From: an uncultured Candidatus Saccharibacteria bacterium
GTDB taxonomy: Bacteria; Patescibacteriota; Minisyncoccia; Phycocordibacterales; Phycocordibacteraceae
NCBI GenBank assembly: GCA_964359685.1
Contig: CAYHUW010000001.1
Span: 1-33,996, forward strand
Direction of reading: 5' to 3'
DNA: 33,996 nt
Within the stretch, counting starts at the first letter, position 1; the number at the start of each line of letters is the position of its first letter. The notes under the pieces are model-generated. The model made no database searches and was not told the DNA's origin. It worked only from the letters and a program-made list of their open reading frames with translations. This document shows positions 4,472-33,996 of the stretch, piece after piece. The position numbers were made by a program, and so were the translations under genes.

Positions 4472-7420
4472 ATGGCGGACGGAGAGAAAAGCGATGTAGC
4501 CAAGCGGGCCGAGCCTACGCAGAAATCTGCTACGGCGGTCAGGGAGGAAGCGATACTCGCTTTTTGGAACGAGCGCGGGATTTTTGAAAAAACTCTCGCG
4601 AAGGACGCACCGAAAGGCGAGTACGTTTTCTACGACGGTCCGCCGTTTGCGACCGGCTTGCCGCACTACGGGCACGTCGTCGCTTCCGTTATTAAAGACG
4701 TCATACCGCGCTACTTCACAATGCGCGGGTACCATGTGCCGCGCGTGTGGGGCTGGGACTGCCACGGATTGCCGATAGAGAACATCGTAGAAAAAGAACT
4801 CGGCTTCAAGCATAAGAAAGAAATAAAAGAATTCGGCGTAGCGAAATTCAACGAAGCGTGCCGCGAGCGCGTTTTGACCTACGCCTCCGAGTGGGAGAAG
4901 GTGATTCCGAGAATCGGCCGCTGGGCCGATATGAAAAATGCATACCGCACCATGGACAAAACGTTCATGGAAAGCGTGTGGTGGGTGTTTAAGTCAATCT
5001 ATGACAAAGGACTGGTGTACGAGGATTACCGCTCCATGCACGTCTGCCCGCGATGCGAAACGACGCTCTCCCAGCAGGAAGTTTCCGAAGGGTATAAGGA
5101 TGTAAAAGATATTGCGGTAACGGTTAAATTTAAATTAAAGAATCCGGAGAAAATCGGTCTCTCGGGGGATGTGTATATGCTTGCCTGGACGACGACGCCG
5201 TGGACTCTGCCGGGGAACGTCGCGCTCGCCGTACACTCCGATATCGTCTATTCGGTAGTTAGAATCGGGGAAGAGGTTGTGATACTTGCGAGCGAGAAAC
5301 TCCCGATGCTCGGTGAGCGTGAGAAAAATCTTCTGAAAGAGGTACAAGGTGCGGACCTCGTCGGGCTTGAATATGAACCTCCGTTCCCGTACTACAAAAA
5401 TGATACGACTCTTAAGAATCGTGAAAACGGATGGAAGGTGTACCACGCTGATTTCGTAACGGCGGAGACGGGCACGGGAATTGCGCATGAAGCGCCCGCG
5501 TTTGGTGCGGATGACTGGGAACTTCTGAAAAAAGAAAATCTGCCGTTTGTTCAGCATGTCGCGTACGACGGCACAATGAAACCGGAAGTCACGGCATTCG
5601 CGGGGATGGAGGTGAAACCGCGTTCGGATGACGACAAAATCCGCCTCGGCACGGATATCGCCGTTCTCAAATATCTGCAGGAGAATAATCTGTTTTTCGC
5701 GAAAGAAAACATCACTCACGCGTATCCGCACTGTTGGCGGTGCGACACGCCGCTTTTGAACTACGCAACCTCTTCGTGGTTTGTGAACGTTACAAAAATC
5801 AAAGAGGGGATGCTCAGAAACGCACAATCAATCAACTGGTCGCCCGAACATGTAAAAGAGGGAAGGTGGGGACAGTGGTTGTCGGGCGCGCGCGACTGGT
5901 CTATCTCACGCCAGCGGTTCTGGGCGAGCGTCATTCCTCTGTGGGTGTGCGAGACATGCAAAGCAAAGCGGGTGTTCGGAAGTGCGCTTGAGCTTGAAAA
6001 AGCGAGCGGGAAGAAAGTAGACGATTTGCATAAACACATTGTTGACGAAATCACCGTATCTTGCGAATGCGGCGGCACCATGCGCCGTATTCCTGATGTT
6101 TTAGATACCTGGTTTGACTCGGGCTCCATGCCCTACGGAGAAAAGAACTATCCGTTTGTGAACAAGGAATCGTTTGACCAGACGTTCCCCGCGCAATTTA
6201 TCGCCGAAGGTCAGGACCAGACGCGCGCGTGGTTTTACTATCTCCATGTCTTGGCGAGCGCGCTTTTCAATAAGCCCGCGTTTCAGAACGTCATCGTAAA
6301 CGGCATCGTTCTTGCCGAAGACGGGAAGAAAATGTCCAAGAAACTTCAGAACTACCCCGATCCGATGAAAATCGTAGACACGTACGGCGCGGATGCCCTG
6401 CGGTACTACCTCCTCTCATCCCCGGTGGTACAGTCGGAAAATCTAAGTTTTGCGGAGAGCGGGGTTGATGAGGTGCTGAAGAAAAATATCAACCGTCTGG
6501 ATAACGTCGTCGCTTTTTACAAACTCTACGAAGACGGTACGAAGCGCGGAGCGGAGAGCGGAAATATTCTTGACCGGTGGATTCTCGCGCGCCTGAATGA
6601 ATTTCTTGCCGAAACGACTCACGGATATAACGAATACAAACTTGATAAAGCGGTACGTCCGCTCGCGCTTTTTGTTGACGATTTGTCCGTGTGGTATCTG
6701 AGACGAAGCCGCGATCGTCTGAAGAACGAGGGGGATGATAAAAAAGCCGCGCTTGCGACCTTGCGGCACATTCTCTACACGCTCGCCGCCGCCGTTGCCC
6801 CCGCGATGCCGTTTTTGGCGGATGATATATACCGAAAAGTAAAAGAGAGTGACGACCCCGAAAGCGTGCACTTGTGTAGCTGGCCGTATAAAGAGCCGGC
6901 GTTCTTTGAGCGGGTATTCGGCGGCGGTACAAAAACCGAAGGTCTTATTTCCGATATGGCGGAGGTCAGAAAAGTAGTTTCTCTGGGACTTGAGAAGCGT
7001 TCGGCGGCAAACATAAAAGTAAGACAGCCCCTGTCCGAGGTTCGGATACAGAGCGCCCTACTCAAAAATAAACACGACCTCATAGACCTCATCCGCGATG
7101 AACTCAATGTAAAGCGTGTGGCGGTTGACCCTACAATGGATAATGACATTGAACTCAACACGGAATTGACGGCTGAGTTAAAAGAAGAAGGGATGATACG
7201 TGACGTGCTCCGGTTTGTGCAGGACCTGCGGAAACAGGCGGGCTTCAGTCCGAAGGACCGGGCAATCTTGCGTATTTCCCCGAAAAACAGGATTTTCGTG
7301 GAAACGCACTGGACCGCGCTCGCAAAAACAGCGAATCTCGTGCGTTTTGAAGAAGGGGAGGCGGGCTCTGAACTTGTCGTGGATGGTGTGACATTTACAT
7401 TCAATGTCGAGCGGGCATAA
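4472..7420 (+). CDS. ileS: isoleucine--tRNA ligase
   Basis: 982 aa. Contains PHYGHVV (HIGH), KMSKK (KMSKS), DWSISRQRFWA, and the editing-domain and Zn-cluster regions. Confidence 0.95.
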   Translation: MADGEKSDVAKRAEPTQKSATAVREEAILAFWNERGIFEKTLAKDAPKGEYVFYDGPPFATGLPHYGHVVASVIKDVIPRYFTMRGYHVPRVWGWDCHGLPIENIVEKELGFKHKKEIKEFGVAKFNEACRERVLTYASEWEKVIPRIGRWADMKNAYRTMDKTFMESVWWVFKSIYDKGLVYEDYRSMHVCPRCETTLSQQEVSEGYKDVKDIAVTVKFKLKNPEKIGLSGDVYMLAWTTTPWTLPGNVALAVHSDIVYSVVRIGEEVVILASEKLPMLGEREKNLLKEVQGADLVGLEYEPPFPYYKNDTTLKNRENGWKVYHADFVTAETGTGIAHEAPAFGADDWELLKKENLPFVQHVAYDGTMKPEVTAFAGMEVKPRSDDDKIRLGTDIAVLKYLQENNLFFAKENITHAYPHCWRCDTPLLNYATSSWFVNVTKIKEGMLRNAQSINWSPEHVKEGRWGQWLSGARDWSISRQRFWASVIPLWVCETCKAKRVFGSALELEKASGKKVDDLHKHIVDEITVSCECGGTMRRIPDVLDTWFDSGSMPYGEKNYPFVNKESFDQTFPAQFIAEGQDQTRAWFYYLHVLASALFNKPAFQNVIVNGIVLAEDGKKMSKKLQNYPDPMKIVDTYGADALRYYLLSSPVVQSENLSFAESGVDEVLKKNINRLDNVVAFYKLYEDGTKRGAESGNILDRWILARLNEFLAETTHGYNEYKLDKAVRPLALFVDDLSVWYLRRSRDRLKNEGDDKKAALATLRHILYTLAAAVAPAMPFLADDIYRKVKESDDPESVHLCSWPYKEPAFFERVFGGGTKTEGLISDMAEVRKVVSLGLEKRSAANIKVRQPLSEVRIQSALLKNKHDLIDLIRDELNVKRVAVDPTMDNDIELNTELTAELKEEGMIRDVLRFVQDLRKQAGFSPKDRAILRISPKNRIFVETHWTALAKTANLVRFEEGEAGSELVVDGVTFTFNVERA

Positions 7421-7994
7421 ATTTGTGTTGCGCGGGGTCGTGGTGCGGAGAGCCGCCGCGGGCGACGGGAGTGCACGCGTTCTCTTGTATACCGATGCGG
7501 CGGGTTTGGTATGGGCGCACGTACAGAGCGGAAGAGAAGAGCGCTCCCAACTGCGCGCGCATCTGCAGATAGGCACGCGCGGTCTTTTCTCTCTCGTGAA
7601 AGGCAGAGACGTGTGGCGCGTAACGGGGATTTCGGGGACCACGAATCTCCACTTTGCTTTGGAGGGGCGCACCGACGCGCAAAAAACGCTGCAGCGCGTA
7701 CTCCTGTTTGTCCGTCAGTTCGTCCGGGGTGAGGGCAGTGACCCGTATTTTTTCACGGTGCTATGGGGATTTCTGGACTCGCTTTCCCTCCTCGAAGGAG
7801 ACGCGCTTAAAGATGCCGAACATGCGGTCGTCCTCCGGATGCTCGCGGCTTTGGGGTATGTGGAAGGCGGCGAGAAAGTGTCGCGGTACCTCCACGCGGC
7901 GTACGATTCGGAGACGCTCGCCGATTTTTCAAAAGACAGGAAGGTCATGCTGGCGGTTATCAATGAGGGGATCAGCGCAAGCGGGCTCAACTGA
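7404..7994 (+). CDS. recO: DNA repair protein RecO (short form)
   Basis: 196 aa. The N-terminal pattern is OB-fold-like (LRGVVVRR...LLYTD..GLVWAHVQSGR) and the C-terminal part is helical. It overlaps the ileS stop by 17 nt. The call rests on family resemblance only. Confidence 0.5.
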   Translation: MSSGHKFVLRGVVVRRAAAGDGSARVLLYTDAAGLVWAHVQSGREERSQLRAHLQIGTRGLFSLVKGRDVWRVTGISGTTNLHFALEGRTDAQKTLQRVLLFVRQFVRGEGSDPYFFTVLWGFLDSLSLLEGDALKDAEHAVVLRMLAALGYVEGGEKVSRYLHAAYDSETLADFSKDRKVMLAVINEGISASGLN

Positions 7995-15876: not shown

Positions 15877-16332
15877 ATGTATCTCAACAAAGTACTCCTC
15901 TACGGCAATCTAACCCGCGACCCCGAGCTTCGCGCGTTGCCGTCCGGTCAGCAGGTGGCTTCTTTTGCTATCGCGACGAACCGTTCCTATAAGAACAAAG
16001 ACGGACAGAAACAGGATTCGGTGGAGTACCACAACGTTGTCGCCTTCGGACGCCAGGCGGAAGTCATCGGGCAGTATCTGAAAAAAGGCCGTCCCGTATA
16101 CATTGAAGGACGCATTCAAACGCGCTCATGGGAGGACAAAACCAGCGGAGAGAAAAAGTACCGCACGGAAATCGTTATTGAAAACTTCCAGTTCGGACCT
16201 TCAGCCATGGGCGGCGCGGGGAGCGCCAACCGTGACGAGAGTTCGGCTCCCGCGCAAGGCAAGGGGAGTGACAAATCGGGGGACATAGAGTATCCTGCCG
16301 AAGAAATAAGCCCCGACGATATTCCGTTTTAG
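15877..16332 (+). CDS. ssb: single-stranded DNA-binding protein
   Basis: 151 aa. It has an OB fold (NKVLLYGNLTRDPELR), a Gly/Ser-rich linker and the acidic tail DDIPF. Confidence 0.9.
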   Translation: MYLNKVLLYGNLTRDPELRALPSGQQVASFAIATNRSYKNKDGQKQDSVEYHNVVAFGRQAEVIGQYLKKGRPVYIEGRIQTRSWEDKTSGEKKYRTEIVIENFQFGPSAMGGAGSANRDESSAPAQGKGSDKSGDIEYPAEEISPDDIPF

Positions 16333-20138: not shown

Positions 20139-20421
20139 CCCGTTAGAGATAGGAAACGCTTCAGTCTGGTTTTCAAAAAGCGTTTACCTGGTCCCGATTT
20201 AAGATATAACTCTCTCGACCTTGCATCCTGCTCATTTTTGCACGATTCATAATAGATGAGTTCGTATGGGCCACGTTTTCTAGTCCACGTGCTTTTGTCC
20301 GCTTGGTGTTGAGTGAAGCGTTTCCGTAAATCATTTGTGTACCCGGTGTACCAATAACCACTTTTCATACTTCGAATAATATACACATAGAACCAACGGC
20401 TCGAATCTCTAACGGGATTCA
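20134..20421 (-). mobile_element. TIR-bounded GIY-YIG cassette with TGAA target duplication
   Basis: On the plus strand: TTCA|TCCCGTTAGAGAT (20138-20150) ... ATCTCTAACGGGA (20405-20417)|TTCA. The 13-nt inverted repeats are perfect and the flanking 4-nt repeats are direct. The element body is 280 bp. Confidence 0.75.
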
Positions 20422-20422
20422 T
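20135..20422 (-). CDS. GIY-YIG nuclease family protein (small stand-alone URI-domain type)
   Basis: 95 aa. Contains FYVYIIRS...GYWYTGYTNDLRKRFTQH and ELIYYE...R.RE..LK, which fit the GIY-YIG core. It has ATGA overlaps with both neighbouring genes. Confidence 0.85.
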   Translation of the reverse strand: MNPVRDSSRWFYVYIIRSMKSGYWYTGYTNDLRKRFTQHQADKSTWTRKRGPYELIYYESCKNEQDARSRELYLKSGPGKRFLKTRLKRFLSLTG

Positions 20423-21105
20423 TCCACTCCTTCGGTGTCGGTGCTCTTGCCCGACACCGTCAATACATCCCGCGGACGTGCGCCGTCCGCGGGGCCGATG
20501 ACACCCCGCTGCTCAAGAATGTCCATGAGCCGCGCCGCTCTCGCGTATCCGATTCTGAGTTTTCTCTGGAGGTACGACGTGGATGCTTTCCCCGCCTCCT
20601 CTACCGTCTGTTTTGCTTCTTCAAACAAGTCGTCTTCCGCCTCGTCGTCTTCAAGAGACGCGGAGAATATCGGGTTCGGCGTCTCCGACGTCGTGCCTGA
20701 AAGCGCAATGCCGTCAACCGAGGGTTCGTTGTTTTTCCGTATGTAGTCAACAACCGCCTTTACTTCATTTTCCGAAATATATGCCGTCTGAATACGGTGC
20801 GGTTTCGGCATGTCCGCCGACTGGTAGAGCATGTCGCCTGCGCCCAGAAGTTTTTCCGCTCCTGCGGCGTCCAAAATGGTGCGTGAGTCAAATTGAGAAG
20901 CGACCTGAAGCGCGATCCTCGCAGGCACGTTCGCTTTAATGAGGCCCGTAATAACATTCACCGACGGGCGTTGGGTGGAAAGGACGAGATGAATGCCGAC
21001 CGCGCGTGACATCTGCGCAAGCCGCACGACCGCCGCCTCCAGTTCCCTCGGATACGTCTGCATGATATCCGCAAGCTCGTCTATAACGATTACGATGTAG
21101 GGCAT
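20419..21105 (-). CDS. ftsK: DNA translocase FtsK/SpoIIIE, C-terminal fragment (Walker B, gamma wHTH)
   Basis: Contains YIVIVIDELADIM, LVLSTQRPSV and the C-terminal gamma domain STSYLQRKLRIGYARAARLMD. The frame stays open upstream to 21189. Confidence 0.85.
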   Translation of the reverse strand: MPYIVIVIDELADIMQTYPRELEAAVVRLAQMSRAVGIHLVLSTQRPSVNVITGLIKANVPARIALQVASQFDSRTILDAAGAEKLLGAGDMLYQSADMPKPHRIQTAYISENEVKAVVDYIRKNNEPSVDGIALSGTTSETPNPIFSASLEDDEAEDDLFEEAKQTVEEAGKASTSYLQRKLRIGYARAARLMDILEQRGVIGPADGARPRDVLTVSGKSTDTEGVE

Positions 21106-21189: not shown

Positions 21190-22596
21190 CTACAAGAGGT
21201 TATAGCGTCGCTCCATCTCTTTAGCCGCCCACTTCAGAGAAATAATAGCCTTCTTCGGGTCGGTAATGACCGGCGTCAGAAGGTGGGGGATGGGGTTGTA
21301 GAGGGTCAGTTCAACCCGTTTCGGGTCAATCATAATAAACCGGAGTGATGCGGGGCCGTTTCTGTAGAGAAGCGATGTGATAAGCGCGTGAATCGCAACC
21401 GATTTCCCCGAGCCGGTAGCGCCCGCGACCAAAAGGTGCGGCATTTTTCCGATATTGGCGAAGTGCGAATTGCCCGCAATGTCGCGGCCTAATGCCACGG
21501 TAAGGGGTTTCTGATCCGTCTGGAATTTTGTGTCGCTTATGAGTGAACCGATTCCGACCGTTGCCTTCTGCGTGTTCGGCACCTCAATCCCCACCAGCGA
21601 TTTTCCGGGGATCGGAGCCTCTATGCGGACAGGCGCGGCGGCAAGCGCCAACTCCAGGTTATTTTGAAGTGCAAGAATTTTCTGAAGGCGCACTCCCTCC
21701 GCGGGCTTCAGTGCGTACCGCGTGACGGTGGGGCCGATAGATACTTCATCCATCTCAACATTGATGCCGAAATTCTGGAGGGTGCGTTTTATCAGGTTCG
21801 CGCTCGCTTTAATGTCGCCGGTGTCGGGTTTTCCGCGGTCGCCCTTCAGGAGGGAAGTCGGCGGCGGATTGTAGGCGCGGTCAACGGGTCTGAATGCTAT
21901 TGCGGAGACCTCCACCTGCGGAATCGGTTCGGGTTTCTTTTCTTTTTTCTGTCGCGAAATTTCGCGGGCGGGCGTTTCCGCGTTGTCTTCGTCTTCCCCG
22001 GCGGTTTCTTCATAGGTATCTTCGTACGCGCCCGTAACGGTGAGTTCTTCTTCCGGTACCGCGGCGTCTTTTCGTTTCAAGAATTCGGGGAAGGCGAGCG
22101 AGGGGAATTTCAAAGGCGTATCAAGCGCCAAAAGCGCACCCACAACCGCGAGTCCCGAGAGGATGATGAATGAAAATACGTAATCAAAAGGGTACAGGAA
22201 GAGCGAGGCGATGAGTTTACCCGCAAGCCCGCCCTGATTTCCTGCAAGCGAGAGAACCGAAATCCCGGACAAAAAGAGCAGAGCGGCTCCGATGACGCGC
22301 GTACCGCCCCAGCCCGTCTCCGGGTTCTGTCTGAAAAAGCCGATAGCGAGCGCAACGAAGACCAGCGGAATTAAAAAATATCCGAGCCCGAAAAGTCCTG
22401 AAGAGCCGAGGGATGTGTAGACCCATTCGCCGAGCCTGCCGCCGATGCCCATCGGAGCCAAAAGAAAGAGAACGGCGACAATAATTGAGAGGACGCCGTA
22501 AATGCTTTTTGCGGTTTCCTGTTTTACGTCGAGCGAGGGGGCTTTGAGGAGAGGTTGGTTCTTTTCCTTGTGCTTCCGTTTCGTGTTTTTCGCCAT
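21190..22596 (-). CDS. ftsK: DNA translocase FtsK/SpoIIIE, N-terminal fragment (TM region, linker, Walker A), ends at an in-frame TAG
   Basis: The likely start is ATG 22596 (MAKNTKRK...). It has four or more TM helices, VAGATGSGKS (Walker A) and KWAAKEMERRYNLL followed by TAG at 21190-21192. Confidence 0.85.
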   Translation of the reverse strand: MAKNTKRKHKEKNQPLLKAPSLDVKQETAKSIYGVLSIIVAVLFLLAPMGIGGRLGEWVYTSLGSSGLFGLGYFLIPLVFVALAIGFFRQNPETGWGGTRVIGAALLFLSGISVLSLAGNQGGLAGKLIASLFLYPFDYVFSFIILSGLAVVGALLALDTPLKFPSLAFPEFLKRKDAAVPEEELTVTGAYEDTYEETAGEDEDNAETPAREISRQKKEKKPEPIPQVEVSAIAFRPVDRAYNPPPTSLLKGDRGKPDTGDIKASANLIKRTLQNFGINVEMDEVSIGPTVTRYALKPAEGVRLQKILALQNNLELALAAAPVRIEAPIPGKSLVGIEVPNTQKATVGIGSLISDTKFQTDQKPLTVALGRDIAGNSHFANIGKMPHLLVAGATGSGKSVAIHALITSLLYRNGPASLRFIMIDPKRVELTLYNPIPHLLTPVITDPKKAIISLKWAAKEMERRYNLL

Positions 22597-22640
22597 AGGT
22601 ATTGTCGTTTTGTATGCGGATTTTATCATGGCAAGCGAGG

Positions 22641-22786
22641 AGCAACATGAAAGGGTGCTTTCATGTTGTCCGAGTGACGCCATGAGAAGCCTACTTACCA
22701 CGGTGAGTGAGGAGCGACGCGAAAGATTTTCTTTCATGTCGTCCGAACGACGCCGTGAAAAGCACCGCTAAGCACGACAGTCGGTG
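22641..22786. repeat. tandem ~73-nt duplication, each unit a hairpin plus a conserved tail
   Basis: CTTTCATGTTGTCCGAGTGACGCCATGAGAAGC (22658-22690) versus CTTTCATGTCGTCCGAACGACGCCGTGAAAAGC (22731-22763). Each is preceded by its complement, CATGAAAG or GCGAAAG. Confidence 0.7.
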
Positions 22787-24066: not shown

Positions 24067-24270
24067 TGTCATTTGTCCACAATACAGGCTACCCACCTTA
24101 TCGTAAGGTAAGGATAAGGCACGTATAATGGGGGGATTCCCGTACGCATGTTTCGGTTGCGCGTTTGTTGTGCCGCGTAACCGCTACCGCCCGAGTGAAC
24201 CTTGTCAATTTAATACCCTGAAATTCCCGTTGTGATACCGTCACGCGCGTGACGTTAATTTGCGCATTCC

Positions 24271-24338
24271 GTGGCTCGCTTCGCGACCACACTCGGATTT
24301 ACTAAACACGGAGTACCGTGAAGTAAATCTCAGCGCCG
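24271..24338 (+). ncRNA. structured RNA element, copy A (candidate 5' leader or sRNA)
   Basis: GTGGCTCG..GACCACACT..GATTTAC-TAAA-CACGG-AGTA-CCGTG-AA-GTAAATC-TCAGCGCCG. About 80% identical to 31290-31355, with compensatory changes in the stem. Confidence 0.6.
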
Positions 24339-24627
24339 AAAGAAAGCTCATACCACCTCGTCTGTACTCTGCACGTATCATTACCGTGCCATTAGCTTCG
24401 GTCTAACAACCGGAGTGATGGAATCGTTTTTCTTCCGTTCATTCAGGAATCAAAAAGAGATTCTAAAGAATGAACCACAAAAAGAAGAAAAACATTTTGT
24501 TGTGCTCTTTATCAGGTATGCGATGCCGATTTCGGAATTACCGAAGGCGGCATACATCGGTTTTCGTTCCCTCTATTTATAAGTGATCGGGAACGGAAAT
24601 CATTCAATTAGAAAATTACAAAACGAT

Positions 24628-27600
24628 ATGTCTATCGCACAGAAATCCATGGCGTTCATCGCTGTGCTTGCGGTAACGGTCGCTATTGTCTTCAGCTTTG
24701 TTGCAACTATCAATGTTGCTCAGGCTGCGGCTTTGACCCAGGGTCAAATCTCGTCAATAGTCTCGTTGCTTCAATCATTCGGCGCTGACGCTACGACCAT
24801 CGCAAACGTCCAGGCTTCCCTGAACGGTATGCCGACTTCGGGCTCAGGCTCAACGTCAGGTGGTTCAATGTCAGGTTCATGCACCTTTACGAGAGACCTT
24901 ACTCTCGGCTCTAAAGGTGATGATGTAACCTGTCTTCAGAACGCTTTGATTGCAAACGGCTATGGAATCGCAGCAGGCGCAACCGGGTACTTCGGTGCTC
25001 AGACGCAGGCAGCGGTTATGAAGTGGCAAGCAGCAGCAGGTGTAGCACCGGCAGCAGGCTACTTCGGTCCTAAGTCTCGCGCAGCATTTGCGTCAGTCTC
25101 AGGCGGCACAAGCACAGGCGGAACAACGACTGTTCCTGCAGGCACTGGCCTTACGGTCATGGCAGGCAGCCAGCCGATGAACGCTCTTGCTCCGCAGAAC
25201 GCTACTCGCGTTCCGTTCACTCGCATCGTATTGACTGCGGGTAACGACGGCGACGTAGTGGTGAATTCAATTCAGGTTCAGCGCACAGGCCTCGGCACGG
25301 ATGCGGCATTCGCAGGGGTAATCCTCGTGGATGAAGCAACCGGTATGCAGGTTGGTGTTGCAAAGACCTTCAATTCAAATCACCAGACGGCAGTCGGGCA
25401 GACGATGACTATTCCTCGCGGAACTTCCAAGACCTTCTTGGTCGCGGGTAACATGCAGTCATCACTCTCGTCGTACGCGGGTGAAGCTCCGTCACTCTCC
25501 GTTGTGGGTGTGAACACGACCGCGACCGTCTCGGGAACTCTCCCGATTGTCGGCGCGACTCATGTCATCAACTCAACGTTGAACGTTGGTACGCTTTCTC
25601 TTACTGTTTCGCAGGCGTTTACTTCAAACGCACCCGCCAACAAGGAGATTGGTACAACAGGTTACAAGACCACAGGGCTTAACCTTACAGCTGGATCGGC
25701 TGAAGATATCCGCTTGAAGTCCATTATCTTCAACCAGACAGGATCTGTTTCAGGTTCTGATCTCGCGAATGTAGCTATTGTTGTCGGCGGCACTTCCTAT
25801 CCTGCGGTTCTTTCCGCAGACGGTAAGTACTACTCGGCAACCTTCGGTTCAGGCGTTGTGATTGCAAAAGGCAATCAGGTTGAGGTCTACGTCCAGTACG
25901 ATATCGTTGGCTCAAACTCAACGAACCGCACCGTTATCTTTGACGTAGATAAGACGACTGACATTTACGGAACCGGCGAAACCTATGGTTACGGTGTTTC
26001 ACCGACAACTGCAGGCGGTTCTTCAGTCCCGACTACCCGCACCAGCCAGAACACGGTAGAGACTACGGGTACTCCGTACATCTACGCGGCTCAGGTCACT
26101 GTGACCGGCGCTTCAGTGACTTCAATTGCGAAAGCAAACGAAGTTGCAGCCCAGAACATTGCAATCAACGTTCCGAACCAGCCTTTGGGCGGTTACGTTG
26201 TTGACATGAAGGGAGAGAGCATCACGGTTCAGACACAGGTGTTCACTGTTGCTTCAACGACCGGTTCAGGTACCGGCCTCTTGACTAACGTTACGTTGGT
26301 TGACGAGAATGGCACCGTAGTAGCCGGTCCTGTTGACGCAACCTACACGAGCTCGCTCGTGCAGACCGTTACCTTCACTGATACGGTTACCTACAAGACC
26401 GGTCGCCATGTCTTTACCCTCCGCGGTAAGGTCGCTTCAACGATCGGAAACGGCGGTACGTATATCGTAAGTACAACCCCTTCAGGTTGGACAAACGTAC
26501 GCGGTGAAACGACCGGCAACACGATCTCGCTTTCTGCAAATGGTGCGTTCTCAATGAACACCATGACCATCAAGGCGGGTTCTATGGTTGTCAACCTCTC
26601 AACATCGCCTGCATCGCAGACGATTGTCCCGGGAGGCCAGGGTGTTCTCTTCACGAACGTTCAGTTTGACGCAACACAGTCAGGTGAGGACATTCGCTTC
26701 TCAACCGCAGCTCTCTCGCTTACATTTGCAAGCGGTGCAGCGGTGACGGATCTTACGTCCTGCCAGTTGTTCGACGGAACTACTGGTCTTAACACGGGCT
26801 CAAACAGCTTGAATCCTTCAGGTGCATCAGGCGCAACGCAGACCTTCACTTTGGACAATCCGGTGACGGCTACGAAGGGCTCGGTGAAAACCTTGGGCCT
26901 CAAGTGTAATGTATCGGGTTCTGCCGCTAACACGGGAACCTTCACATGGGCACCGGTTACCGGTCCTACGTTCTCTGGCGCAACTTCAGGTACGACCATC
27001 ACTGCTACCTATCCGACTGCTCCGACTATCACCGTTACTATCGGTGTAGGTTCAGTCGCGGTGTCAACTGATGCTGCATCGCCTTCGTACATGCTCGCGG
27101 CTGCTGGCTCCGTCGGCGTCACGAACGGTGTGTACAAGTTCCGTGCAACGAACGAAAACATCAACCTGACGAGAGTTGGTTTGGTGCTTTCTAACACTGC
27201 TTCTTCGTCAGCAGGTGACGTCCTCAAGGCGACCATCTATGCAGACGGAGTAGAGAAGGGAGTTGCTTACTTTATCGGTTCATCGGTAAATGCAACTTCA
27301 ACCTTGGCTATTCCTATCGTTCTTACGAAGGACGTAGACAAGGCGATTACGATCAAGCTTGATTACGCTGATGTCGGCTCAAGCCAGGCAGTCACGTTCT
27401 CAGGTCACTTGGTCGCGGTTAACGTAGACGTAGGGGGCACGAACACGCAGGGTACGGGAGCATCTTCCGGCGCTACGTTCAACGCAACCGGCTCTACGGC
27501 AGTTTCAGGTGCTCGCGTCATGAAGTCATACCCGACGTTGGCGCTTGATACTTTGTCTTCAACAGGTATTGCCGATGGTCGCTTGATGCGATTCAAGGTA

Positions 27601-28128
27601 ACTGCTGATGCAAAGGGTCCGGTCGGTATCGCTCAGTTTGCGCTTAACCTCGCAACTTCAACTGCTTCAGTTACCAACGTCACTATCTACGGCTTCACGG
27701 ATGCGGGCTACTCAAATCCGGTGTCAGGCGTAGCAACTGACGGTAACCTCCAGCAGACGAACGATTGTACGGCTGGTTGTACCTCAAACCCGAACTTGAC
27801 GATTGGCGTAGCTAACTCGTCAGGCGCAACGGCGCTCCAGGTTCCGGCAGGTTCAACGCTCTACTTCGAGGCTCGCGGTTCAGTGTCAGGTGTCACCACA
27901 GGTGCATCTGTCACGACCAAGCTCCTCGGTAGCTCGTCGTTCCCCTCGACTTCAGCAGGTGTAGCGGTTAACCCGCTTCTCACTGTTGCAGGTGTTGCCG
28001 ATGGAAACGCCTTCATCTGGTCTCCGAACTCGACCACGACTGTTACACAGACGGGTCAGGATTGGACGAACGGATTCGGCCTCAATGGTCTTCCTTCAGG
28101 CGGTCTGATTCAGACCCGCTCGAACTAA
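24628..28128 (+). CDS. secreted or anchored cell-surface (S-layer-like) protein with a PG_binding_1 domain and Ig-like repeats
   Basis: 1166 aa from ATG 24628 (MSIAQKSMAFIAVLAVTVAIVF... signal/anchor). It has the PG-binding motif LTLGSKGDDVTCLQNALIANGY...GYFGAQTQAAVMKWQ and a long Thr/Ser/Gly/Val/Ala-rich beta-repeat region. Codon bias is strong. Confidence 0.85.
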   Translation: MSIAQKSMAFIAVLAVTVAIVFSFVATINVAQAAALTQGQISSIVSLLQSFGADATTIANVQASLNGMPTSGSGSTSGGSMSGSCTFTRDLTLGSKGDDVTCLQNALIANGYGIAAGATGYFGAQTQAAVMKWQAAAGVAPAAGYFGPKSRAAFASVSGGTSTGGTTTVPAGTGLTVMAGSQPMNALAPQNATRVPFTRIVLTAGNDGDVVVNSIQVQRTGLGTDAAFAGVILVDEATGMQVGVAKTFNSNHQTAVGQTMTIPRGTSKTFLVAGNMQSSLSSYAGEAPSLSVVGVNTTATVSGTLPIVGATHVINSTLNVGTLSLTVSQAFTSNAPANKEIGTTGYKTTGLNLTAGSAEDIRLKSIIFNQTGSVSGSDLANVAIVVGGTSYPAVLSADGKYYSATFGSGVVIAKGNQVEVYVQYDIVGSNSTNRTVIFDVDKTTDIYGTGETYGYGVSPTTAGGSSVPTTRTSQNTVETTGTPYIYAAQVTVTGASVTSIAKANEVAAQNIAINVPNQPLGGYVVDMKGESITVQTQVFTVASTTGSGTGLLTNVTLVDENGTVVAGPVDATYTSSLVQTVTFTDTVTYKTGRHVFTLRGKVASTIGNGGTYIVSTTPSGWTNVRGETTGNTISLSANGAFSMNTMTIKAGSMVVNLSTSPASQTIVPGGQGVLFTNVQFDATQSGEDIRFSTAALSLTFASGAAVTDLTSCQLFDGTTGLNTGSNSLNPSGASGATQTFTLDNPVTATKGSVKTLGLKCNVSGSAANTGTFTWAPVTGPTFSGATSGTTITATYPTAPTITVTIGVGSVAVSTDAASPSYMLAAAGSVGVTNGVYKFRATNENINLTRVGLVLSNTASSSAGDVLKATIYADGVEKGVAYFIGSSVNATSTLAIPIVLTKDVDKAITIKLDYADVGSSQAVTFSGHLVAVNVDVGGTNTQGTGASSGATFNATGSTAVSGARVMKSYPTLALDTLSSTGIADGRLMRFKVTADAKGPVGIAQFALNLATSTASVTNVTIYGFTDAGYSNPVSGVATDGNLQQTNDCTAGCTSNPNLTIGVANSSGATALQVPAGSTLYFEARGSVSGVTTGASVTTKLLGSSSFPSTSAGVAVNPLLTVAGVADGNAFIWSPNSTTTVTQTGQDWTNGFGLNGLPSGGLIQTRSN

Positions 28129-29149: not shown

Positions 29150-29300
29150 GCTATTTGGACTTTCGTTTGGTACTCTAGCGGGAGCACGACTGGAGACAGT
29201 AGGTCCCGAAAGGGGTAATGAGCGAAAGCCGCCTGCCGAAGTCGAAAAAGGTTTAAGGTCGAATCCTTTACCCAGCCCGTGCTCACACGGGTTTTCTTTT
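29150..29300 (+). promoter_or_regulatory. rplJ leader region ending in an intrinsic terminator (attenuator candidate)
   Basis: About 150 nt of GC-rich structured sequence upstream of rplJ. Its terminator is CCCGTG CTCA CACGGG TTTTCTTTT (29276-29300), about 25 nt before the ATG. Confidence 0.5.
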
Positions 29301-29323
29301 TATATAAGAAGACCCACACAACT

Positions 29324-30639: not shown

Positions 30640-31206
30640 ATGTTCAAAGAACTGTCGCGCCTCTTCCAGAATCCCGCCCGCATCAAAGTTCTGAAATTTT
30701 TCACTCTCCAGCCAAATCTTAAAACTTCAGCAAAAGACGTCGCGCAGACCATCGGCGGAAGCGTCGCAAAAACCGAGATTGAAATCCGCGCGCTCGCCCG
30801 TGCGGGAGTGTTGACGGGCAAGCGCCAGGGGAAGAAAACAATGTATTCACTGTCGCCGACGTTTCCGCACGCCGAAGCAGTCCGCGGTTTTTTGGACGAA
30901 ATCACACAGCCGAATGATAAGTCGCTCTCGGATGCTTTCCGCGGCGTTCCCGGCGTCACGCTGTTGGTCGCAACAGGAGCTCTGGTTCGTGAGCGTCGCG
31001 GCACCATTGACCTTCTTGTGGTCACACGCCGCCCGAAGGATGCCCGTATTGAACGGGCGGTACGGCAGGTTGAAACAAAGGCCTCTTTGCCGATTCGCTA
31101 CGCTGTTTTTGATACCCGGGAGTACGAAGAGAGGAGAGTCGCGAGAGACAGGCTACTCAGGGACGTCTTTGAATTTACCCACGCAGTCATTGTAGGCAGA
31201 GGTTGA
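30640..31206 (+). CDS. ArsR-like winged-HTH protein with an uncharacterised C-terminal domain
   Basis: 188 aa. The N-terminus LFQNPARIKVLKFFTLQPNLKTSAKDVAQTIG...VLTGKRQGKKTMYSL resembles a wHTH. TACAAT at 30627-30632 lies 7 nt before the ATG. Confidence 0.65.
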   Translation: MFKELSRLFQNPARIKVLKFFTLQPNLKTSAKDVAQTIGGSVAKTEIEIRALARAGVLTGKRQGKKTMYSLSPTFPHAEAVRGFLDEITQPNDKSLSDAFRGVPGVTLLVATGALVRERRGTIDLLVVTRRPKDARIERAVRQVETKASLPIRYAVFDTREYEERRVARDRLLRDVFEFTHAVIVGRG

Positions 31207-31289
31207 GCCGTTTTTCGGAATATCCTTCTTCCCGGGGCTATTCACAGCGCTCGGCGCAAACCCCCTATATGGTGCTACCATTTTGGTAG

Positions 31290-31355
31290 GTGGCTCGATT
31301 ACGACCACACTTGGATTTTCTAAAACGGAGTACCGTTAAGAAAATCTCGGCGGCG
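31290..31355 (+). ncRNA. structured RNA element, copy B (candidate 5' leader or sRNA)
   Basis: GTGGCTCG..GACCACACT..GATTTTC-TAAA-ACGG-AGTA-CCGT-TAA-GAAAATC-TCGGCGGCG. It is a paralog of 24271-24338 and lies 78 nt upstream of the 31433 ATG. Confidence 0.6.
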
Positions 31356-31432: not shown

Positions 31433-32119
31433 ATGCTTATTCAAACATGGGCTGATGTATTGACTGCCTCGTTCCAGAACCTCTGGCTTGGCATCGTTGC
31501 ATTTGTCCCGAACATTATTGTTGCGGTCATCATTTTTGTCCTCGGCTGGCTCGTCGGAGCGGCTTTGGGCAGAATTATCGCGCAGGTCATCAAGGCTATT
31601 AAGCTTGATATGGCGCTTAAAAATACCGGTCTCAATGATGCGGTAGAGCGCGCGGGCTTCACGCTTGATTCAGGCGCATTTTTAGGAATGCTCGTTCAGT
31701 GGTTCTTCATCATTGTCTTTTTGATGGCGTCTTTGGAAGTCTTGGGATTGACCCAGGTTAATCTCTTCCTCCAGAACGTTGTCCTCGCATACCTCCCGCA
31801 GGTTATCGTCGCCGCATTGATTCTTCTTGTCGGCGCGGTCGTGGCACAGGTTGCAAAAGATATCGTGGGCGGTGCTGCAAAAGCGGCAGGCGTTCATGGG
31901 GCAGGATTCGCAGGTTCAATCGCTATGTGGGCAGTTTGGATTTTCACCCTCATTGCCGCATTGGATCAGCTTCAGGTCGCACAGGCTTTCATTCAGACTC
32001 TCTACACGGGTGTGATTATCGCCGTCTCTTTGGCGGTCGGTCTCGCATTCGGTTTGGGCGGTCAGGAAGCCGCTGCTCGCGCAATAGAGAAAATGCGCTC
32101 GCAGATGGGCGACAAATAA
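31433..32119 (+). CDS. membrane protein with conserved-TM-helix repeats (mechanosensitive-channel-associated type)
   Basis: 228 aa. Repeated amphipathic/TM units are present (PNIIVAVIIFVLGWLVGAALGRIIAQVIK; LPQVIVAALILLVGAVVAQVAKDIVGG). Codon usage resembles that of the surface protein and rplL. Confidence 0.75.
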   Translation: MLIQTWADVLTASFQNLWLGIVAFVPNIIVAVIIFVLGWLVGAALGRIIAQVIKAIKLDMALKNTGLNDAVERAGFTLDSGAFLGMLVQWFFIIVFLMASLEVLGLTQVNLFLQNVVLAYLPQVIVAALILLVGAVVAQVAKDIVGGAAKAAGVHGAGFAGSIAMWAVWIFTLIAALDQLQVAQAFIQTLYTGVIIAVSLAVGLAFGLGGQEAAARAIEKMRSQMGDK

Positions 32120-32265: not shown

Positions 32266-32303
32266 CCACACCTATACCTCCATATATGGAGGTATAGGTG
32301 TGG
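32266..32303. repeat. 38-nt perfect palindrome CCACACCTATACCTCCATA|TATGGAGGTATAGGTGTGG
   Basis: Perfect dyad followed by GTGTTTTTGTTTTT, so it is terminator-like on the plus strand. Its 24-nt core is identical to argS 1983-2006. Confidence 0.9.
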
Positions 32304-33308: not shown

Positions 33309-33996
33309 GGTTTTCAAGCTTCCTCGCGGAAGTTTGAAGGGTGTATGGTGGATGCCTTGACTTTAAAAGGCGATGAAGGACGCAGCACGTCTGCGAAAAG
33401 TTTCGGGGAGCTGACGAGCAAGCTTCGATCCGAAAATATCCGAATGGGGAAACCCCTCGTACTTCGTACGAGATCTGTGGAGTGTTCTGCAGATGCGCAC
33501 CTCGGGAAGTGAAACATCTCAGTACCGAGAGGAAAAGAAACCAACAGTACATCTCGGTCTCTGCACAAATTTATTTTGTACAGGGACCGGGATTCGGGAA
33601 TTTCCCTAGTAGCGGCGAGCGAAAAGTAATCAGCCCAAACCGTATCAGCAAGGGTGCGGGGTTGTAAGGCGATGGCGTTCCATTTTATGGAAGAGAAGTT
33701 ATCAAAGATATTGGTAGAAGAATCTGCTGGGAAGCAGAACTCTAAAGGGTAATAGTCCCGTATTCGAAATCAATATCTCTTCTTTGCCGTCGATCTTGAG
33801 TAATCCGAGACACGAATAGCTTGGATGAATCCGCCGGAACTAACCGGCAAGGCTAAATATCTTTAAAGATCGATAGTGAACCAGTACCGTGAGGGAAAGG
33901 TGAAAAGCAGCCCGGAAGGGCGGTGAAATAGATCTGAAACCATATGTTTACAAGGAGTCGAAGCGGTCGCAAGACCTCGCCGGCGGGCCTATTGAA
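33309..33996 (+). rRNA. rrl: 23S ribosomal RNA, 5' domain I (partial, continues beyond the window)
   Basis: Conserved blocks are present in the correct order: GGTGGATGCCTTG, GCGATGAAGGACG, CCGAATGGGGAAACCC, GGGAAGTGAAACATCTCAGTACC, CCTAGTAGCGGCGAGCGAA, GATAGTGAACCAGTACCGTGAGGGAAAGGTGAAAAG and GTGAAATAGATCTGAAACC. Confidence 0.92.

Follow-up and report, generated by a model that had tools for sequence, protein, structure and literature searches.

Intergenic regions, introns and the variable parts of rRNA genes are all home to scattered double-hairpin elements (DHEs) and GC clusters. The DHEs of fungal and protist mitochondria are short, have two hairpins and are regarded as mobile because of presence/absence differences; no transposase is known for them (PMC5910586, citing Paquin et al. 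2000). Small structured repeats that enter intergenic regions, structural RNA genes and, in frame, coding genes are known as well, namely the Rickettsia palindromic elements (RPEs) and the QMITEs of Coxiella (PMC5896051). Here we describe a two-hairpin element that is present twice, as copies A and B, in a 33,996-nt stretch of DNA from an uncultured Candidatus Saccharibacteria bacterium (NCBI GenBank assembly GCA_964359685.1, contig CAYHUW010000001.1, positions 1 to 33,996 of the forward strand), which we refer to as the window. Both copies belong to a family of dispersed 63-69-nt cassettes that no catalogue lists and that, within the range of our searches, is confined to the Patescibacteria or candidate phyla radiation (CPR). 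The element is probably a small mobile cassette rather than a regulator of particular genes.

Two further kinds of bacterial repeat bear on the comparison. ERIC/IRU sequences are highly conserved across species and differ in location; they lie in transcribed regions, and their pairing is maintained at the RNA level. ERICs are imperfect palindromes of about 127 bp found in enterobacteria, and we know of no report of them in ribozymes. In substrates of HUH/Y1 enzymes, the strand that folds tends to be oriented like co-directional genes. REP/BIME sequences and the palindrome-associated elements derived from IS200/IS605, treated in Ton-Hoang et al. 2010, reportedly depend on strand-specific, bulged or mismatched hairpins, with no target duplication and with precise excision.

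Results

Copy A occupies positions 24271..24335 on the plus strand (73.1 bits, E 1e-15 with the family covariance model), and copy B occupies 31290..31352 on the same strand (82.7 bits, E 7e-18). These ends are the boundaries of the covariance model, and alignments of empty sites leave an ambiguity of 1-4 nt at them. A preliminary description of this DNA had reported two plus-strand copies with about 80% identity and unrelated flanks. MAFFT alignment confirmed this: A and B share a core of about 66 nt that is about 80% identical, beyond which no relation is seen between the flanks. Nor do the flanks resemble those of other loci, true orthologs excepted. Within the window, the 16-mer GACCACACTYGGATTT has just two occurrences, at 24285 and 31303, even when 3 mismatches are permitted, and exact copies of ACGGAGTACCGT occur only at 24308 and 31325. 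With filters off, the family model matches the window exactly twice, at A and B, and the reverse strand scores 10-14 bits. A weak repeat match at 16314, considered as a third copy, lies within coding sequence and was attributed to chance.

Each copy folds as two adjacent hairpins, P1 and P2. The folding energy is -27.3 kcal/mol for copy A (z -4.9) and -22.7 kcal/mol for copy B (z -4.2), and in neither case was any of 200 shuffles as stable. In copy A, P1 spans 24271-24290, with a bulged C at 24275, and is followed by a linker A at 24291. P2 of this copy (24292-24333) is made up of CU/AG, a C.C mismatch, the 9-bp helix GGAUUUACU/AGUAAAUCU, an AAA/A internal loop and the apical hairpin CACGG-AGUA-CCGUG, and the copy ends with the tail CG at 24334-24335. 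In copy B, P1 spans 31290-31308 and the linker A is at 31309. P2 (31310-31350) consists of CU/GG, a U.C mismatch, GGAUUUUCU/AGAAAAUCU, an AA/A internal loop and AACGG-AGUA-CCGUU, and the CG tail is at 31351-31352. The long hairpin that was initially proposed for both copies corresponds to P2. The proposal had overlooked the hairpin formed by the 5′ part of each copy (GUGG-C-UCG..CGA-CCAC), which is the second conserved hairpin, P1, one unpaired A away from P2. The three compensatory changes listed at that stage are all real: the outer stem of P2 is GGAUUUACU/AGUAAAUCU in A and GGAUUUUCU/AGAAAAUCU in B, the base of the apical stem is C-G in A and A-U in B, and the pair below the P2 stem is U-A in A and U.G in B.

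The element could not be assigned to an RNA family when it was first noticed, and Rfam 15 has no relevant match for it either. At the gathering threshold, the window yields 23S rRNA only; in E-value mode over 24100-24650, the best match overlapping the element is IsrM, at 9.8 bits against a cut-off of 376.

An exact-pattern scan of a metagenome collection produced six loci. In the first genome scan, nothing matched an exact 23-nt pattern that extended over the apical hairpin, and a pattern with the apical hairpin left free found 30 stretches in GTDB representative genomes. We built a covariance model, R1, from an alignment of 36 copies and ran it over all the collected loci (numbered with the prefix L below), for which genomes had been sampled as 1-20-kb slices. 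R1 returned 45 matches, 44 of them distinct, at 29-94 bits, compared with 10-20 bits on the opposite strand; the homologs that the preliminary description had called for thus exist. Since most copies were found through exact patterns, the apparent conservation of P2 is biased. The carriers are nearly all Patescibacteria/CPR, and include Paceibacteria, Kaiserbacteria, Parcubacteria and Saccharibacteria. Outside Patescibacteria, the GTDB stretches comprised one metagenome-assembled genome labelled Rickettsiales and one Bacillus match (L030), and we judged the latter to be a chance match rather than a family member. IMG/VR viral contigs gave one chance match (L037), and GenBank phages and plasmids gave none. 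A literature search found no earlier description of the element in CPR.

Among the 44 distinct copies, 96.5% of cells are in standard pairs, and in 17 of the 25 pairs both sides have changed. Neither the 500 shuffles nor the slid controls reached comparable values of pairing and covariation. As first supposed, the element is conserved and structured, and it folds only on the plus (sense) strand. P1 has 9-10 bp, and its closing pair, G1-C, is present in 43 of the 44 copies. A C is bulged after the fourth pair; the G-C pair before the bulge, the bulged C itself, and the U-A and G-C pairs after it are near-invariant, and positions 2, 3 and 7 covary freely. P1 was absent from every search pattern. 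A single unpaired A links P1 to P2, which begins with two pairs, a Y.C mismatch and a near-invariant G.U (42 of 44 copies), continues with the 9-bp helix (as in B, GGAUUUUCU/AGAAAAUCU) and an AA/A internal loop, and ends in a freely covarying 5-bp stem with a 4-nt loop. The 3′ tail of the element is CG. The pair beneath the G.U at the P2 foot is U.G in 34 of 44 copies and U-A in 10. Because these G.U and U.G wobbles are kept, the fold is confined to one strand. Even the 9-bp helix changes in a compensated manner: copy A itself has a U-A to A-U change, and a decayed copy in L040 retains the helix with different bases. The unit begins with the 5′ strand of P1 (G-YR-GCUCG) and finishes with ...UCUCRGCG, so its ends are not inverted copies of each other. 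Its sole unpaired parts are the linker A, the bulged C, the Y.C mismatch and the AA/A loop.

The internal loop of P2, UCUAAA/UAAGA, resembles the 11-nt GAAA tetraloop receptor, CCUAAG/UAUGG, whose AA platform docks a GAAA loop; this is a lead only. There is no consistent GNRA loop in P1 among the aligned copies, and the conserved strands have no complementarity to rRNA in the collected loci. We also considered that an open reading frame (ORF), such as a homing endonuclease gene, might split the element within P1 or P2, and found no orphan halves.

The foot of P2 contains a highly conserved inverted repeat, GGATTTTCT...AGAAAATC, of the kind that a dimeric protein could bind in duplex DNA as a palindromic operator or recombination site. 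However, such a site would have no need of a spacer that is self-complementary and covaries, or of a further covarying hairpin, and the G.T positions make the fold strand-specific. We consider this explanation most improbable.

The strongest indication of what the element is came from relatives of the window. These were gathered through homologs (72-99% identical) of the MscS-like protein encoded downstream of B, which gave about nine further genomes, among them GCA_019752595.1 with 98% protein identity. Together with L029, they share the gene order of the window: FtsK, a 255-aa gene, the PG_binding_1 protein, a TPR protein, L10, L12, a 188-aa gene, the MscS-like gene and 23S. R1 found no copy at site B in any of the nine or so relatives, and found site A empty throughout L038-L049 except for the decayed, AT-rich copy in L040, which scored 29 bits. 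At site B, the window reads ...CCATTTTGGTAG, then 63 nt of element (GTGGCTCG...CTCGGCG), then GCGGTGTTCTCCCTAGGGG, where L038 has ...CCATTTTCAGTAA joined directly to GGCGGGTTCCTCCCTAGGGG; in the alignment, the site is empty likewise in L039-L042 and L029. Contig L001, which comes from Hainich H51 groundwater, matches site B identically. At site A, the window has ...TTAATTTGCGCATTCC, the element (GTGG...CAGCG) and CGAAAGAAAG, with the right flank also containing CCGAAAGAAAG, where L039 runs from ...TTAATTTGCGTATCAC straight into TGAAAGAAAG. Copy A is a precise insertion relative to L038, L039 and L042. The overlap at the A and B junctions is at most 1-4 nt and ambiguous. Since the host leader is conserved with or without the element, A and B are discrete insertions of about 63-66 nt into sequence that functions in their absence. 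Equivalently, the element could have been deleted seamlessly in the relatives.

These empty sites bear on the function first suggested for the element, that of a leader, riboswitch or stabiliser for envelope genes. A gene-specific cis-regulatory leader, be it a riboswitch, a thermosensor or a protein operator, would fit the fact that A and B lie in sense, upstream of genes and in likely 5′ leaders. But the element is missing from the orthologous leaders of about nine relatives. Its neighbours across the family are heterogeneous and include 23S introns; the downstream genes, once recorded, turned out to be unrelated (rpoB, csp, SNF2 helicase) and not specific to the envelope. Many copies are 3′ of genes, antisense, intronic or within coding sequence, and a junction with a single unpaired nucleotide offers no obvious ligand pocket. 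Taken together, these findings make a dedicated regulator of the genes downstream of A and B scarcely credible.

The other early suggestion, a family of independently transcribed small-RNA genes, has in its favor the stable, conserved fold and the existence of intergenic copies, some of which are antisense to their neighbours and therefore not part of those mRNAs. However, the inserted block is the 63-69-nt fold alone and its flanks are unrelated, so that it carries no promoter or terminator. No promoter-like site adjoins A or B, and half of the copies lie within introns. Small-RNA genes are thus a very unlikely explanation.

About half of the copies reside in peripheral loops (P2.1, P5, P6 or P8) of group I introns in 23S rRNA genes. 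In L003 and L006, the element is within the 23S rRNA gene, and its surroundings align in Rfam as a whole group I intron (45 bits, E 1e-10) whose P8 loop contains the element. This intron is directly upstream of GCGUGAGACAGGUUGGUC, near a known 2593-type site. Position 2593 of 23S is among the sites where CPR insertions encode LAGLIDADG_1 (PMC11270868). Many copies are in P6, flanked by ACCGAGGGAAG and CCCGUAGAGACU, a placement that intron alignment gives for L038. P5 copies are found in L011, L009b and L031, and P8 copies in L003, L006 and L032b; L036a is in a P2.1-like hairpin, and L022 is in a different type of intron. Some introns have two copies (L009, L032 and L036), and within the same 23S intron the module's position is P6 in L038 and P8 in L003/L006. 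Except for L003 and L038, these positions were read from conserved flanking motifs rather than from a model alignment, and some of the Intron_gpI scores are under the Rfam gathering cut-off. With the closing stem that an intron loop supplies, the unit forms a tight three-way junction. The element is not a fixed architectural part of one intron subgroup, because its positions and introns vary and copies exist outside introns. In the syntenic relatives, an unbiased set, L038 and L029 have a 23S intron copy, and L046, L047 and L048 have none. A and B themselves are not intron-borne: no Intron_gpI was detected around A at E up to 10 or anywhere in the window at the gathering threshold, and their flanks are ordinary intergenic sequence. 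In L031, at about 7600-7640 on the minus strand, the intron with the P5 element has, in the region of P6, an ORF of LAGLIDADG type (...YIAGFLDGDGSLML).

The remaining copies are found in many other places. One is in the 23S-5S spacer (L010), one abuts the 5′ end of a tRNA (L015), and others adjoin tRNAs (L004, L018 and L027). Copies are located 51 nt 5′ of rpoB (L016), 5′ of an SNF2 helicase gene (L034), immediately 3′ of the ftsW stop and between convergent genes (L017/L023), and between ruvB and an HD-domain gene (L033). The copy in L004 is 3′ of a TPM-domain gene whose stop codon is inside P1. In L005, L008 and L035, the element is antisense to both of its Pfam-verified neighbours. To see whether the structured strand sits on the lagging-strand template, we took the local GC skew of the element strand in non-rRNA loci; 8 were positive and 8 negative, and at 1-8 kb the loci are too short for this measure. 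We asked separately whether the large genes downstream of A, L016 and L034 are homologous; Pfam identifies them as PG_binding_1, rpoB and SNF2 helicase, which are unrelated.

Tandem arrays occur in L018, L020 and L021. In L021 (contig VGJQ01000027.1; 7849-8000, minus strand), at least 3 head-to-tail units of 69 nt are in frame within a DnaQ-like exonuclease, and the array terminates exactly at the ExoIII motif S-A-H-D-A-E-G-D of the enzyme. Homologs of the exonuclease, of 236 aa, have no array segment. Half copies also exist: L011 has P1 alone, in P6, and L046 has P2 alone, as a hairpin directly next to the start codon of rplJ. Intergenic copies have decayed in L040, L018b and L024b, and the intron copies L009b and L038, which were not selected by a pattern, are intact. 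In L024 (4448-5001), an 85-aa cold-shock (csp) gene stands between two inverted copies, the 5′ one scoring 78 bits and the 3′ one 55 bits; this arrangement may be a composite cassette or a coincidence.

Several copies in rRNA operons, or 5′ of long or highly expressed genes, are placed as one would expect of a processive antiterminator. In put RNA, the stems are separated by a single unpaired nucleotide. The putL/putR RNA of HK022 has about 70 nt and two stem-loops, and it acts in cis on RNA polymerase while part of a nascent transcript (PMC9378689). A put-like element could make polymerase resistant to termination on rRNA operons and other long operons. The similar outline (about 70 nt, two stem-loops; PMC9378689) speaks for this, as do the copies in rRNA operons and those 5′ of rpoB and of the 1166-aa gene. 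However, many copies come late in the 23S gene, lie 3′ between convergent genes or are antisense, and close relatives dispense with the element. An antiterminator is therefore very unlikely, if slightly less so than a gene-specific leader.

The element is gained and lost as a block, its contexts are numerous and unrelated, some copies form tandem arrays, and others are decayed or halved; for this combination of reasons we favor the view that the element is a small non-autonomous mobile cassette and not a gene-specific regulator. In this scenario, the P1 bulge and the P2 foot with its junction would form a surface that is recognised by a trans-acting enzyme. The enzyme may act on the folded single strand, in the "peel-and-paste" manner of HUH/Y1 proteins; this specific mechanism, put forward by analogy, is a tentative choice and probably not the right one. 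A very stable, self-contained fold would allow insertions to be tolerated in ribozyme loops, in leaders and even in coding sequence. Mobile group I introns of 23S rRNA could serve both as a reservoir and as a vehicle between lineages. At A and B, the cassette would be a recent passenger in 5′ leaders, and any putative effect on mRNA stability or translation there would be secondary.

A number of observations weigh against a mobile cassette. No transposase or other mobilising gene was identified in the collected loci; the target shows neither a conserved sequence nor a clear duplication. The copy number looks low, with few copies per genome, as counted in slices only. The invariance of the P2 foot and the 9-bp helix is partly imposed by the apex-free scan pattern, and the near-invariant positions of P1 lie outside the search patterns. 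All of the more than 20 rRNA-linked copies are in sense, as an RNA-level function would also predict, and the contrast between intact intron copies and decayed intergenic ones fits a selected RNA module of introns as well.

Indeed, several of these points are what one would expect if the element were a modular RNA domain that benefits its host: a portable binding platform for a conserved CPR RNA-binding protein or ribonuclease, or an exonuclease-resistant cap. Such a domain would be repeatedly recruited into precursors of stable RNAs (23S introns, the 23S-5S spacer and tRNA leaders) and into highly expressed mRNAs, where it would control processing or stability. Beyond the invariant P1, junction and tail positions that no pattern contained, the uniform sense orientation at rRNA genes and the intact state of the intron-borne copies, it finds support in the neighbours, which include rRNA, tRNA, rpoB, csp and ribosomal protein operons. 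The element also has a mean identity of 85%, compared with 42-48% for the surrounding intron, although this difference is inflated by selection with the exact 23-nt pattern. On the other hand, occurrence at four different intron positions rules out one fixed intramolecular contact, the nearest relatives do without the element at both window sites, some copies are antisense to both neighbours, and one array is inside coding sequence. We see a host-beneficial domain as the leading alternative, possible but doubtful. The two views would be reconciled if a mobile cassette bore a protein-binding surface as well.

We then consider the surroundings of the two copies. The gene downstream of A (24628..28128, plus strand) encodes a protein of about 1166 aa with a PG_binding_1 domain, and its ATG is 292 nt past the element. 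The leader of this gene, which hosts copy A, spans 24124..24627 on the plus strand, from a conserved TATAAT box at 24124-29, with the transcription start inferred, to the ATG at 24628. The leader is highly conserved in relatives irrespective of the element. At about 500 nt, it is long for a compact genome, and it is a candidate structured 5′ untranslated region in its own right. The gene downstream of B (31433..32119, plus strand) encodes a 228-aa membrane protein with an MS_channel_1st_1 transmembrane helix, and its ATG is 80 nt past the element. A and B are presumably transcribed within these leaders. Upstream of site B, at 31200-31290, the blocks TATTCACA and GGGTGYTACCATTTT are conserved in all relatives; they may be a promoter, in which case the transcript would start at copy B or close to it.

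Rfam places the beginning (5′ part) of the 23S rRNA gene at 33325..33996 on the plus strand, and the 3′ end of the gene is beyond the window. Group I introns near that 3′ end are where the family is chiefly found in relatives. There is no 16S gene or tRNA upstream of 23S within the window, where the surrounding gene order is clade-conserved, and the rRNA genes are therefore unlinked. No tRNA or tmRNA genes were found in the window.

Most relatives conserve the leader of rplJ (about 29180-29320), which contains GCACGACUGGAGACAG...CCUGCCGAAGUCG followed by a terminator-like hairpin, CCCGUGCUCACACGGGUUUUCUUUU. P2-like AGAUUUUCUAA...UAAGAAAAUCU hairpins, one of which abuts the ATG, take the place of the terminator part in L038, L043 and L046. 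A perfect 24-nt palindrome, TATACCTCCATATATGGAGGTATA, occurs twice, at 1983-2006 and 32273-32296, 30 kb apart, and could be a protein-binding site or another small repeat. Finally, ftsK has an in-frame TAG at 21190-21192 (minus strand) where relatives have GAG (Glu): ...ERRYNLL*GHSVRDIHSYHENVV in the window and ...ERRYTLLEGHQVRDIHSYHENVV in L040. Because of this codon, ftsK is read as two ORFs, 21190-22737 and 20419-21105. The TAG could reflect a pseudogene, a sequencing error or read-through.

Discussion

The family described here shows unusually clean covariation and is absent from Rfam 15. Insertions in CPR rRNA genes are many and only partly classified (PMC11270868), and a model of this family would improve the annotation of these genes. 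The case also counsels caution: structure that is conserved, covaries and lies upstream of genes can belong to a mobile passenger instead of a regulator. Classical transposons are scarce in the tiny genomes of CPR bacteria. The presence of a 65-nt cassette in ribozyme loops, in leaders and in a coding sequence points to a route of mobility, or to an RNA-binding factor, that has gone unrecognised. It is conceivable, if unlikely, that the element is a CPR-wide "RNA handle" read by a conserved protein or ribonucleoprotein, or that it is spread by a mechanism not yet described for bacterial elements; we give this broader proposal a little less credence than a host-beneficial domain. As a handle, it would mark intron, rRNA-spacer, tRNA-leader and mRNA transcripts for shared processing, protection or quality control. 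A new mechanism of spread would, for example, bring the folded single strand into loops of highly transcribed genes, with rRNA introns as the vehicle. Since catalytic introns tolerate the fold at four positions, it could be of use in RNA engineering as an insulated structural tag.

How does the element compare with known systems? It shares with IS200/IS605-type elements (PATE) strand-specific, bulged or mismatched hairpins, the lack of duplication and seamless empty sites, and, like HUH/Y1 elements, its structured strand has the sense of the rRNA genes. PATE insert 3′ of a conserved 4-5-nt target and have similar hairpins at their two ends, whereas the 5′ flanks of the element vary (ATTCC, GGTAG, CCGTC, AGTCG and others), and P1 differs from P2. 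No cognate TnpA/Y1 gene is associated with the element in the collected loci. L021 does have a 234-aa Y1_Tnp gene (6690-7540, minus strand; IS200-like/RAYT-like) with its own palindromes, TGTGCAAGCCAGGCCTGCACA, on both sides; this REP-like system is a separate one, and the element array is about 375 nt away from it. We considered this Y1 transposase as the mobiliser and rejected it: its palindromes are its own and different, and it has no homolog in the other loci. REP/RAYT systems consist of high-copy short palindromes around a Y1 (RAYT) gene, with a 5′ tetranucleotide that is conserved, and this relation is thus not repeated here. Nor does the unit contain a fixed GTAG, because its positions 2-3 covary.

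Like MITEs (transposable elements of the miniature inverted-repeat kind), the element shows presence/absence differences and dispersed copies. It has no terminal inverted repeats and no target-site duplication, and for that reason it is not a MITE. Unlike ERICs, it belongs to another phylum, is a smaller unit and occurs in ribozymes. With HK022 put, it shares only an outline, and the contexts of most copies do not fit. In that about half of the copies extend P2.1, P5, P6 or P8 loops, it is like the P5abc/P6/P8/P9 add-ons of introns.

The array in the L021 exonuclease is comparable to in-frame RPE insertions. RPEs and QMITEs are 100-300 bp long, and QMITEs have terminal inverted and direct repeats, whereas the CPR unit has 63-69 nt and neither kind of repeat. 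Compared with DHEs and GC clusters, the element comes from another domain of life, its sequence is unrelated and its copy number is apparently low; unlike DHEs, it has a fixed architecture, near-invariant positions and strong covariation across the superphylum. Yet, like DHEs and GC clusters, it is a dispersed unit of two hairpins that is present in one genome and absent from the next.

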